From the NCBI GenBank assembly GCA_958295685.2, contig OY282365.1:702975-766974 (forward strand): a DNA stretch of 64,000 nt, given 5' to 3'. Of the stretch, positions 15,200 through 16,987 are shown one piece after another. This DNA comes from an uncultured Dehalococcoidia bacterium. GTDB taxonomy: Bacteria; Chloroflexota; Dehalococcoidia; Lucifugimonadales; CATQGZ01. The translations under genes and the position numbers were made by a program. Positions within the stretch are counted from its first letter, which is position 1. Every line of letters starts with the position of its first letter. The notes below the pieces were generated by a model. The model worked only from the letters and a program-made list of their open reading frames with translations, was not told the origin of the DNA and ran no database searches.

Positions 15200-15276
15200 T
15201 GGCGACCCCGACCGGATTCGAACCGGCGATCTCTGCCTTGACAGGGCAGTATGTTAAACCGCTACACCACGGGGCC
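15200..15276 (-). tRNA. tRNA-Asp (GTC)
   Basis: The reverse complement is GGCCCCGTGGTGTAGCGGTTTAACATACTGCCCTGTCAAGGCAGAGATCGCCGGTTCGAATCCGGTCGGGGTCGCCA. It folds as a cloverleaf with anticodon loop CTGTCAA, a TTCGAAT T-loop and an encoded CCA. Confidence 0.9.
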
Positions 15277-15352
15277 GCGAGGGGGAGAACTTTGTGTCCA
15301 GGGTTCCAGCCGGAGGGCGCGCCGCCGTCACGCCGAGCGGCGCGGTCGGCGC

Positions 15353-15589
15353 CTAGATGGACTGAAGAGCGGCATCCAGTTTCGGCGGGCTGTAGCCCAC
15401 GATCCGCTCATTCCCGATCACCGTAACCGGCGTCGTGCGGTAGCCCATGCCGACCAGGCGCTTGACCGCCTCCGGGTCCATAGACACGTTGTACTCGGTG
15501 AAGGAGACACCCTTTCGTGAAAGATACACTTTCACCATGTGGCAGGGGCCTCAGCCAGTGGACGTATAGACTTGTATCTCGTTTTCCAT
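15353..15589 (-). CDS. glutaredoxin/NrdH (YruB)-like selenoprotein, active site U-G-P-C
   Basis: The ATG at 15589 has a GGAG RBS 7 nt upstream. The product reads MENEIQVYTSTG-[TGA 15551-15553]-GPCHMVKVYLSRKGVSFTEYNV…TTPVTVIGNERIVGYSPPKLDAAL. The in-frame TGA falls exactly at the first Cys of the CxxC motif of small glutaredoxin-like proteins (…VYT.xWCPPCxxxKxxL…). A hairpin lies 15 nt downstream. Confidence 0.75.
15517..15535 (-). promoter_or_regulatory. candidate SECIS-like hairpin downstream of the Grx-like UGA
   Basis: GUGAAAG-UGUAU-CUUUCAC is a perfect 7-bp stem starting 15 nt 3' of the UGA. Confidence 0.35.
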
Positions 15590-15678
15590 AACACACTCCA
15601 TGTCTCATTATAGACGGCGGGGGCTTCCGGGCGATAGGGCCGGGGCCGCCCCGCCGGGTCGTCTTGATCAGGCCGGGC

Positions 15679-16113
15679 TCACGCGCCGCCTCCGGCCTCC
15701 CTTCGCTTTTTGAGGTTGTGTTCCTTCTTGCCGCCTGTGTCTTCGAACAGCTCTCGTCCGACAGGCACCGCCTTGTCGATGGTCTGAACCGCCTCCCCTT
15801 CCTCCTGGTACTTGCGAAGAAACTCTTCGCTCACGAAGAACATTCATATACAGAACCCGTCGCGCTCGATGTCCTCGTGGTGCCTCTCGCAGGGGCATAT
15901 CTTCTTGCGGTCCTCGACGGGATCGCCGCTGAGCGGCATTCAGGGACAGTATCTATAGCCATGTATCCTCTCGTTGTCGCCCAAGCCCTCCTGGACGACG
16001 CGGACCACGTCCTGCTCGGGGAAGAACTCGTACGGCCCCCTGTCCACGTAGCGTTCCGAGAACTTCACGGCTCTGTCGAATGCTTCCTCGGGTGTCAGCT
16101 TGCGTTTGTTCAT
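15679..16113 (-). CDS. ferredoxin:thioredoxin reductase catalytic-subunit-like selenoprotein with two in-frame UGA codons
   Basis: The ATG at 16113 has a GAGGTG RBS; a GTG at 16122 is also possible. The translation reads …VVQEGLGDNERIHGYRYCP-[TGA 15940-15942]-MPLSGDPVEDRKKICPCERHHEDIERDGFCI-[TGA 15844-15846]-MFFVSEEF…, ending at the TGA at 15679-15681. This reproduces the FTRc CPC…CPC…CHC(MLF) pattern as CPU…CPC…CIU(MFF). Confidence 0.75.
15925..15937 (-). promoter_or_regulatory. small hairpin immediately 3' of the first FTR-like UGA (SECIS candidate)
   Basis: GCCGC-UCA-GCGGC starts 2 nt after the UGA. A comparable hairpin, UCUUCG-UGAG-CGAAGA, lies at 15824-15839 after the second UGA. Confidence 0.3.
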
Positions 16114-16118
16114 GCCGC

Positions 16119-16364
16119 TCACCTCGGCGCCGCCCGTCCCATTCTGAATTGCCGATGGGCATCGCAGGACATCCTGGAGAACGAGTCGGCCTGAGTTTCG
16201 ATTCGCTGCGCCAGAGTGGGCAGGACTGCCTCGATCTCCCCGAGGGTCTTATCGCCGCCCACTTCTACGCTGAGGAGGGCGGAGGTTCCACACTCGCAGC
16301 CTGCCTTGAAGAAGACTTTGCGGAATCCGGGGTTGGCGGACAGGTCCAGCTTGAAGCCGGGCAT
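16119..16364 (-). CDS. hypothetical small protein upstream of the FTR-like gene (start uncertain)
   Basis: The ORF reads MPGFKLDLSANPGFRKVFFKAGCECGTSALLSVEV…SCDAHRQFRMG. Its stop lies 5 nt before the FTR-like ATG. The frame stays open up to the tRNA-Val gene, and GTG/TTG starts are possible up to about 16507. I recognise no family. Confidence 0.4.
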   Translation of the reverse strand: MPGFKLDLSANPGFRKVFFKAGCECGTSALLSVEVGGDKTLGEIEAVLPTLAQRIETQADSFSRMSCDAHRQFRMGRAAPR

Positions 16365-16514
16365 TGCAACTAGGTCTGTCCTGTGCAGGACGGCGCCTGC
16401 TATGAGCGCGTGGAGCTCGTCGTCTCCGGGCACCTCGCCACTCACAGCCACCGCCTGGTTCGGCGCGAAGTCATCTCGAGGCAATGGGGCTCCCCCTGCG
16501 ACCGTCGTCACTCG

Positions 16515-16591
16515 TGGTGGGCGGTACTGGATTTGAACCAATGACCTCTGCGATGTCAACGCAGCGCTCTGAACCACTGAGCTAACCGCCC
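16515..16591 (-). tRNA. tRNA-Val (GAC)
   Basis: The reverse complement is GGGCGGTTAGCTCAGTGGTTCAGAGCGCTGCGTTGACATCGCAGAGGTCATTGGTTCAAATCCAGTACCGCCCACCA. The anticodon loop is TTGACAT and the CCA is encoded. Confidence 0.92.
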
Positions 16592-16609
16592 TTGCCGGAC
16601 TCATGGTCA

Positions 16610-16639
16610 AGTTTAGCAAGCCACTTCCCAACGGGTCAA
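16610..16639 (-). promoter_or_regulatory. candidate tRNA-Val promoter TTGACC-18 nt-TAAACT
   Basis: In reverse complement, 16634-16639 reads TTGACC and 16610-16615 reads TAAACT. The -10 box ends 18 nt before the tRNA 5' end. Confidence 0.45.
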
Positions 16640-16690
16640 GCTGGCACGCGGGCGAACCTGTCCCTCCTAGTCGACTGGGGCTCGGCGGCA

Positions 16691-16987
16691 GGTGATTTTT
16701 GCTGAAAGTGTCGGATTTGCGGGCATTTCGTAGCTGGGAGGTGCGATTTTGGCCGACACTATGCGACACTCATGCGACACTCATGCGACACTTATGCGAC
16801 ACTTATGCGACACTTATGCGACACTTTGCGACACTTATGCGACACTTTGCGACAGGCGATGCAGGAGTCCTGCGGGCTGGTTTGTGGAGAGAGGCGGCTG
16901 TGTCATGGGCATACTCTAGCACAGTGGTTCGGTGGTGTCAATTGTCTGAATCAGGATTCTCAGGATTGGAGGATTAGCAGGATTGGG
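16691..16987 (-). repeat. R3: promoter-bearing intergenic repeat element (GTGTCGCAT array, 10 units)
   Basis: In minus-strand orientation the element has AATCCT boxes (16946-16987), a promoter (16913-16941) and ATGACACAGCC. Ten units of 10-11 nt with a TGTCG core follow (16751-16856), then CCCAGCTACGA, an inverted unit (16705-16717) and CAGCAAAAATCACC (16691-16704). Confidence 0.8.
16913..16941 (-). promoter_or_regulatory. promoter TTGACA-17 nt-TAGAGT inside R3
   Basis: In reverse complement, 16936-16941 reads TTGACA and 16913-16918 reads TAGAGT. The spacer ccaccgaaccactgtgc is nearly identical to those of R1 and R5. Confidence 0.6.

Follow-up and report, generated by a model that had tools for sequence, protein, structure and literature searches.

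The 64,000-nt stretch of Dehalococcoidia DNA analyzed here (the window, to which all positions refer) carries on its minus strand an open reading frame (ORF) annotated as a 61-aa 'glutaredoxin', and an in-frame TGA codon lies shortly upstream of its ATG. The question raised by this locus is whether the annotated ORF is a complete gene or the remainder of a selenoprotein gene in which the TGA is read as selenocysteine (Sec), and what the protein might do in the latter case. Sequence comparison indicates that the 61-aa ORF very probably represents only the 3' portion of a selenoprotein gene that starts at ATG 15589 and encodes 78 aa. Overall, the data are best explained by a Sec-redoxin whose UGA would be decoded via SelB and tRNA-Sec with the aid of a hairpin, and which would act as the thioredoxin-like carrier of a conserved gene module; we consider this explanation likely.

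The full coding sequence of the Sec-redoxin (15353..15589, minus strand) encodes 78 aa between ATG 15589 and the stop codon TAG at 15355-15353, and the annotated ORF (15353-15538, minus strand) starts at the internal ATG 15538. From ATG 15589 the minus strand reads GAA AAC GAG ATA CAA GTC TAT ACG TCC ACT GGC TGA. The TGA (15551..15553) is followed by GGC CCC TGC CAC and then by the annotated ATG. The read-through product is MENEIQVYTSTG-U-GPC-HMVKVYLSRKG...LQSI, also written MENEIQVYTSTG-U-GPC-HMVKVYLSRKGVSFTEYNV...PKLDAALQSI. In this product the UGA specifies residue 13, the first position of the active site U13-G-P-C16, which comes after 'IQVYTS'. A GGAG ribosome-binding site could be read from the sequence at 15596..15599 (minus strand), 6 nt before the ATG at 15589-15587. 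The first-pass annotation had proposed this extension through the TGA, with its own GGAG and ATG, a 7-bp hairpin 15 nt past the UGA (15517-15535) and a gap of 89 nt to an FtrB-like gene, and all of these were recovered from the sequence (the FtrB stop codon is TGA 15681-15679). It had also regarded the 61-aa ORF as incomplete, and profile searches bear this out. The Pfam Glutaredoxin profile (PF00462) aligned with the extended product, in which U was replaced by C, over positions 1-60 of 60 (56.7 bits, cut-off 22.9), and with the annotated ORF over positions 14-60 only (34.8 bits). The annotated ORF lacks strand beta-1 and the active site.

In order to analyze the conservation of the TGA codon, the window was compared with 80 related loci, all of which come from genome assemblies of SAR202/Dehalococcoidia (Chloroflexota), one genome per species being scanned. 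Together with the window this set comprised 81 sequences. The TGA codon was unvaried in all 81, which rules out a pseudogene or a sequencing error, and a start codon (ATG, GTG or TTG) was present 10-15 codons 5' of the TGA in 81/81 loci. All 80 related loci had the common architecture (I/V)x(V)(Y/F)(T/S)SxG-TGA-GPC(H/Q/R)-MVKVYLSRKG. None of the homologues was confined to a product that starts at the downstream ATG and lacks the redox motif, which would have spoken against the extension; all of them carried the upstream U-G-P-C and a start codon. Within the 8 codons 5' of the TGA, mean conservation was 0.88, 0.80 and 0.50 at codon positions 1, 2 and 3, respectively. The body of the ORF gave 0.80, 0.86 and 0.51, and non-coding DNA farther upstream showed a flat conservation of 0.36-0.38. 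Invariant residues upstream of the TGA were encoded by varying synonymous codons, as seen for a Val (GTC 30, GTA 25, GTT 24 and GTG 2 of the 81 sequences) and a Ser (TCC 36, TCG 26, TCT 13 and TCA 6). Since the variation 5' of the TGA follows the codon positions as it does in the ORF body, the region upstream of 15538 appears to be translated under amino-acid selection, as the first-pass annotation had supposed.

That the N-terminal residue of the CxxC-type motif is Sec is further supported by homologues with Cys at this site. The Sec13 column contains Cys in the database protein P0185 (CGPC), in the solved structure 7C10 (CPHC) and in NrdH (CVQC), so that an in-frame UGA aligns with Cys in homologues and is conserved on both sides, as is typical of selenoprotein genes. 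TGA is also the commonest stop codon in the window (15 of 31 long non-overlapping ORFs) and terminates the neighboring FtrB gene. Because TGA is an ordinary stop codon here, the genetic code is not reassigned. The invariant UGA, the coding-type flanks, the alignment of Sec with Cys and the conserved hairpin described below all point in the same direction, and we are highly confident that the redoxin is a genuine selenoprotein, with Sec insertion itself predicted from these features. A codon bias was noticed next to the UGA. The Gly codon directly 5' of it (15554-15556, minus strand, and equivalents) was GGT in 60/81 sequences, and other conserved Gly codons of the gene were spread across all four synonyms. 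This preference may reflect a context effect on recoding.

The hairpin downstream of the UGA was analyzed in the same 81 sequences. RNAalifold recovered a consensus of 7 pairs, GUGAAAG / UGUAU / CUUUCAC (15517..15535, minus strand), beginning 15 nt after the UGA. Its apical loop starts ~22 nt past the UGA and has G as the second loop base; both this distance and the loop G fall within the published bacterial SECIS (selenocysteine insertion sequence) model. That the apical loop contains conserved guanosines was noted in the 2008 paper on the Global Ocean Sampling (GOS) metagenomes (Zhang & Gladyshev 2008). Apart from a mismatch in one of the 81 sequences, the only changes were A to G substitutions that retain pairing as G.U, one pair being affected in 8 sequences and another in a single sequence. 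Codon usage within the hairpin was strongly restricted. Both Val codons of the stem were GTG in 81/81 sequences, the Leu codon was CTT in 81/81 and the Ser codon TCA in 79/81. The Lys codon was AAA or AAG (73/8), which is compatible with G.U pairing. The Tyr codon in the loop was TAT or TAC (52/29), and the Arg codon straddling the 3' end of the stem, of which only the first base is paired, was CGA, CGC, CGG or CGT (36/36/7/2). Accordingly, codon entropy was 0-0.19 bits for the stem codons of Val, Val, Leu and Ser, and 1.2-2.2 bits, mostly 1.4 or more, for the other conserved 3- to 6-fold degenerate codons of the gene. The stem codons are thus frozen at synonymous sites, which argues for selection at the nucleotide level on an RNA structure within the coding region. 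The single-sequence fold of 66 nt was unremarkable (z = -1.05), and the significance of the hairpin comes from its conservation across genomes. The SECIS-like nature of the element is therefore based on RNAalifold together with codon entropy: a hairpin shortly downstream of the UGA that is conserved at synonymous sites. It is placed where bacterial SECIS elements lie and, as expected of such an element, would guide decoding of the UGA.

To which family does the 78-aa product belong? The UxxC motif after strand beta-1 and a cis-proline before beta-3 (the 'T-P' of 'RTTPVTVIG', present in 81/81 sequences and aligned with 'VPV'/'APV' of 7C10 and NrdH) are those of the glutaredoxin (Grx) fold. Features of classical glutathione-dependent glutaredoxins were absent: the motif is UGPC, the C-terminal 'VGYSPPKL' has no GGxdD, and the GRX_bact model (TIGR02181) scored 38 bits against a cut-off of 90. 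The best NCBIfam match was YruB (TIGR02196), with 73.2 bits below its cut-off of 88.55. The NrdH models likewise stayed below their cut-offs (TIGR02194, 58.6 vs 85.75 bits; NF007657, 39.9 vs 131), and of the NrdH motifs UGPC replaces CVQC and only G-Y-S-P of WSGFRP is kept. The same was found for the Uxx-star families (NF041212, NF041211 and NF041114), with 46.8 vs 66, 45 vs 100 and 19.8 vs 72 bits. The thioredoxin profile (PF00085) had no match at E <= 0.01; only the G-P dipeptide is common to both, and the residue preceding the active site is G, not W. The small glutaredoxin/NrdH-like fold assigned by the first-pass annotation is hence borne out by the full-length Grx profile match, and membership in the YruB or NrdH families is not, as all scores lie under the NCBI trusted cut-offs. 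Scores below every curated cut-off and the lack of glutathione-site motifs indicate that the redoxin forms a subfamily of its own among small Grx-fold redoxins, marked by a thioredoxin-type G-P, and is, judged by its sequence, not a bona fide NrdH. In an exhaustive search of a representative library, carried out with the 61-aa part, the closest full-length Cys form was P0185 (78 aa, 50% identity, ...KVYTSES-C-GPC-QMVK...). The best solved structure was 7C10 (E = 2.3e-11, 38% identity over 73 residues, 2-74 to 2-74 without gaps), followed by NrdH-redoxins and by 3ZIJ/3ZIT, which we take to be the Grx-like thioredoxin BC3987.

The physiological context of the redoxin is suggested by its neighbors. 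Upstream of it lies the gene of a 144-aa double selenoprotein of the FtrB family (15679..16113, minus strand; NF041072, 219.1 bits, cut-off 160; Pfam PF02943), related to ferredoxin-thioredoxin reductase (FTR). Its two UGA codons, 15942-15940 (C-P-U) and 15846-15844 (C-I-U), occupy both redox-active Cys positions of FTR. These TGA codons were unvaried in 81/81 (first) and 80/80 (second) sequences, and the gene's own stop is TGA as well. Conserved hairpin candidates follow both of them on the minus strand, GCGAUCC/..../GGAUCGC at 15907-15926 after the first, with one stem mismatch in the window, and GCGAAG/AGUUU/CUUCGC at 15814-15830 after the second. The placement of the redoxin beside an FTR-like selenoprotein gene, which the first-pass annotation had pointed out, holds for 80/80 loci. 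A third gene of the module had been overlooked. It encodes an orphan Cys3-His protein of 110 aa (P0121; 16119..16451, minus strand), 5 nt separate its stop codon from the FtrB ATG, and the gene is found beside FtrB in 77/80 loci. C52, C54, C96 and H99 are invariant in the alignment. Neither Pfam, NCBIfam nor PDB gave a sequence or profile match for P0121, and Foldseek found no PDB fold match for its confident AlphaFold2 model (pLDDT 86, pTM 0.76; best E = 0.27). Its role might be that of a metal-centre electron donor, of an accessory subunit of FTR or of a target. The order of the module is thus orphan Cys3-His protein, FtrB with two Sec and, as the last gene, redoxin.

The module is flanked by tRNA genes on the same minus strand, with tRNA-Val(GAC) (16515..16591) directly upstream and tRNA-Asp(GTC) (15200..15276) directly downstream as the 3' boundary. 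Since the only sigma-70-like promoter match (16639-16610, minus strand) was upstream of tRNA-Val, a common transcript may comprise the tRNAs and the three-gene module. A listed long ORF at 16119-16769 runs through tRNA-Val and was discarded as an artefact. Farther upstream, the intergenic region before tRNA-Val contains an 11-nt tandem repeat, CGACACTTATG, with 9.5 copies and 93% matches (16754-16854). In close relatives, too, the trio is located between tRNA-Val(GAC) and tRNA-Asp(GTC), and distant relatives keep the trio without the tRNAs. In three loci (L056, L058 and L063) FtrB is inverted but has kept both the redoxin and the orphan gene as its neighbors. Linkage that survives rearrangement and loss of the flanks argues for a functional unit.

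FtrB proteins outside this set were also inspected. A divergent FtrB clade (L082, 397-1056; L083, 52-843) carries either two TGA codons (P0339) or C-P-C and one TGA (the single-Sec form P0340). In place of the Grx-like gene, this clade has as convergent neighbors one or two genes for desulforedoxin-like proteins of 39-47 aa (CxxC...CC, PF06397). These Fe(Cys)4-type neighbors hint that small metalloprotein donors accompany the FtrB enzyme family. A search for close FtrB homologues with Cys at all sites mostly returned Sec forms mis-translated with W and fragments cut at the TGA, and the only Cys substitution seen there was at the first site of the fragment P0340. No FtrB was present on the only contig of P0185, which is 533 bp long.

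How could such a module work? With the hairpin at 15535-15517 as a guide, SelB and tRNA-Sec would insert Sec at the UGA 15553-15551. A low-potential donor, e.g. ferredoxin, would reduce the [4Fe-4S] cluster of FtrB, the Sec/Sec pair of FtrB would then reduce the Se-S bond of oxidized redoxin, and reduced redoxin would in turn reduce disulfides or selenenylsulfides of target proteins. In FTR, a [4Fe-4S] cluster beside a disulfide reportedly takes two single electrons from ferredoxin, and a mixed disulfide is said to form between the exposed FTR Cys and the N-terminal Cys of thioredoxin W-C-G-P-C. Here Sec stands at the two redox positions of FTR and also at the attacking position of the redoxin, and we propose an inter-protein Se-Se intermediate, in which the exposed Sec of FtrB would attack Sec13 to form a transient Se-Se bond. 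A precedent for a Sec-matched donor and acceptor is the experimentally studied Sec-Grx1/Sec-MsrA pair of C. oremlandii, and Grx-fold proteins serving as thioredoxins are known in archaea. The direction of electron flow, the partners and the targets of the redoxin are inferred here. The dedicated reductase-substrate pair suggested by the first-pass annotation is consistent with the strict linkage of both genes. In its boldest form, the trio might be a self-contained, ferredoxin-driven, all-selenium disulfide reductase of SAR202 with an obligatory Se-Se intermediate, in which the orphan would be a new FTR subunit or metal-centre donor; we put this forward tentatively, as a model somewhat more likely to fail than to hold.

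Other explanations concern either the decoding of the UGA or the function of the protein. If the UGA were a real stop codon, the locus would contain a 12-codon mini-ORF and a separate 61-aa Grx-fold protein without CxxC. This is how the gene appears in databases, where 120/120 best matches are cut at the internal ATG (P0002-P0120 among the entries), and this ATG is invariant. But these entries are automatic gene calls, and some pipelines read the TGA as W (P0184). The 61-aa product would be a fold lacking its first strand and its active site, the upstream codons are in frame, contiguous with the ORF and under amino-acid-level selection, and Sec13 aligns with Cys of the CGPC and CPHC homologues, which together leave a real stop very improbable. 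Equally improbable is that reassignment or near-cognate read-through makes the UGA a codon for one of the standard amino acids Trp, Cys and Gly. Those public gene calls that give W at these TGAs would fit such a reading, but TGA is the prevailing stop codon of the window and ends FtrB, and a protein with Trp or Gly as the nucleophilic residue would have no redox activity. Reassignment, moreover, needs no dedicated conserved hairpin, and the lineage is known as Sec-rich, with two Dehalococcoidia assemblies among the ten richest bacterial selenoproteomes (49 and 46 genes).

The serious rival leaves the Sec-redoxin as a genuine selenoprotein and concerns its function only. An NADPH-thioredoxin reductase (TrxR) encoded elsewhere might reduce the redoxin, and its clustering with FtrB might reflect co-regulation in a selenium or oxidative-stress regulon, or the orphan Cys3-His protein might be the one on which both act. 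In favor of this rival, the redoxin is similar to NrdH in its fold and its G-Y-x-P motif, NrdH proteins are the next-best NCBIfam and PDB matches, and redoxins of the NrdH type are classically reduced by NADPH-TrxR. The divergent FtrB clade has no adjacent redoxin, and no match indicates the role of the third gene. Against this stand the adjacency of FtrB and redoxin in 80/80 loci, kept through rearrangement and loss of flanking genes, and the CGPC-type dipeptide, which is the motif of thioredoxins, the classical FTR substrates; in addition, no TrxR gene was found near the module. On balance we consider this rival unlikely. Several observations nevertheless weigh against the favored explanation, a Sec-redoxin acting as carrier of an FtrB module. 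The hairpin displays invariance only, without compensatory covariation in the 81 sequences, and no Rfam family matched it at permissive E-values (15300-16200). A gene for tRNA-Sec, SelA, SelB or SelD was found neither in the 64-kb window nor in any of the 8-kb loci. At gathering thresholds Rfam reported only two tRNAs in the window and no match to a SECIS or tRNA-Sec model, and a tblastn search of the window and the 80 loci with an approximate E. coli SelD query gave no match, which is uninformative for a 64-kb sample. As no genes of the Sec machinery were found in the sampled DNA, its occurrence in this genome is assumed from literature at the level of the lineage, with the double-Sec FtrB of the same operon as further support. 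The divergent FtrB clade adjoins desulforedoxin-like genes and not a redoxin, so FtrB proteins do not universally need this partner. The classical role of TrxR for NrdH-type redoxins counts here as well. Finally, FtrB as the direct reductant is a proposal drawn from synteny, which we favor by a modest degree.

Public databases contain systematically wrong gene calls for this module. Apart from the redoxin entries that begin at the internal ATG, other entries (P0184, P0331-P0339) have the TGA codons of redoxin or FtrB translated as Trp, giving 'VGWGPCH', 'YCPWMPL' and 'FCIWMFF'. Corrected annotation would turn what is now recorded as an inactive fragment into a catalytic selenoprotein, and this for a major marine lineage. 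The kind of protein is not new. Knowledge of glutaredoxin and Grx-like selenoproteins with UxxC dates back to the Sargasso and GOS surveys, and some of these proteins have been biochemically characterized. The double-Sec FtrB, in which Sec replaces both redox-active Cys residues, was first reported from ocean metagenomes (Zhang & Gladyshev 2008) and is also listed in a 2026 review. UxxC Grx-type selenoproteins and the FtrB double selenoprotein are hence already catalogued. The UGPC subfamily, for which there is no NCBIfam model, its strict three-gene linkage with FtrB-UU and the orphan protein appear to be unrecorded, and no report of an FTR and glutaredoxin-like gene pair for Chloroflexi was found in the literature. 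For the double-Sec FTR, which has been on record from metagenomes since 2008, the redoxin would be the candidate substrate that had been missing. The compact three-gene module could be reconstituted to ask whether a Sec-to-Sec hand-off gives an advantage in kinetics or redox potential. If the proposal is true, a bacterial group that is among the most abundant in the deep ocean would possess a selenium-based alternative to the NADPH-TrxR/thioredoxin system.

Among known systems, the FTR/thioredoxin system of cyanobacteria and chloroplasts, with its double-Sec bacterial variant, is a close counterpart of the module. The neighbor gene is a member of the FtrB_double_U family (NF041072), and the proposed substrate has the G-P of thioredoxin between its two redox residues. 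In contrast to that system, the substrate here would have a Grx fold of ~78 aa with Sec and not a thioredoxin fold, and no FTR variable subunit is present, an orphan Cys3-His protein being encoded instead. The CxC spacings also differ, being 14 and 12 residues in this FtrB and 16 and 8 in classical FTR. NrdH and YruB (TIGR02194, TIGR02196), the top NCBIfam matches along the entire product, are like the redoxin ~75-80 aa long, have the cis-Pro 'TPV' as well as a C-terminal G-[FY]-x-P, and probably share with it a thioredoxin-like activity without glutathione. NrdH has CVQC with Cys, whereas the redoxin has UGPC with Sec and no ribonucleotide-reductase genes nearby. UXX-star glutaredoxin-like selenoproteins resemble it in selenocysteine and a distant Grx-like fold, but have their Sec three residues before the stop codon, and not at residue 13 of 78.

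The best structural match, 7C10, is glutaredoxin-1 of Clostridium (Alkaliphilus) oremlandii OhILAs (cGrx1; 7C10/7C12), a native selenoprotein with U13-P-H-C16 that was crystallized as the Cys mutant. cGrx1 reduces Sec-MsrA and is recycled by glutathione. Both proteins have a minimal Grx fold of ~80 aa in which residue 13 is Sec and residue 16 the resolving Cys, and both would follow the logic that a selenoprotein reduces a selenoprotein. They differ in the active site, which is U-P-H-C of the Grx type in cGrx1 and U-G-P-C of the thioredoxin type in the redoxin, and in the host phylum (Firmicutes and Chloroflexota, respectively). In contrast to cGrx1 with its links to glutathione and MsrA, the redoxin has a [4Fe-4S] enzyme of the FTR type as its genetic partner.

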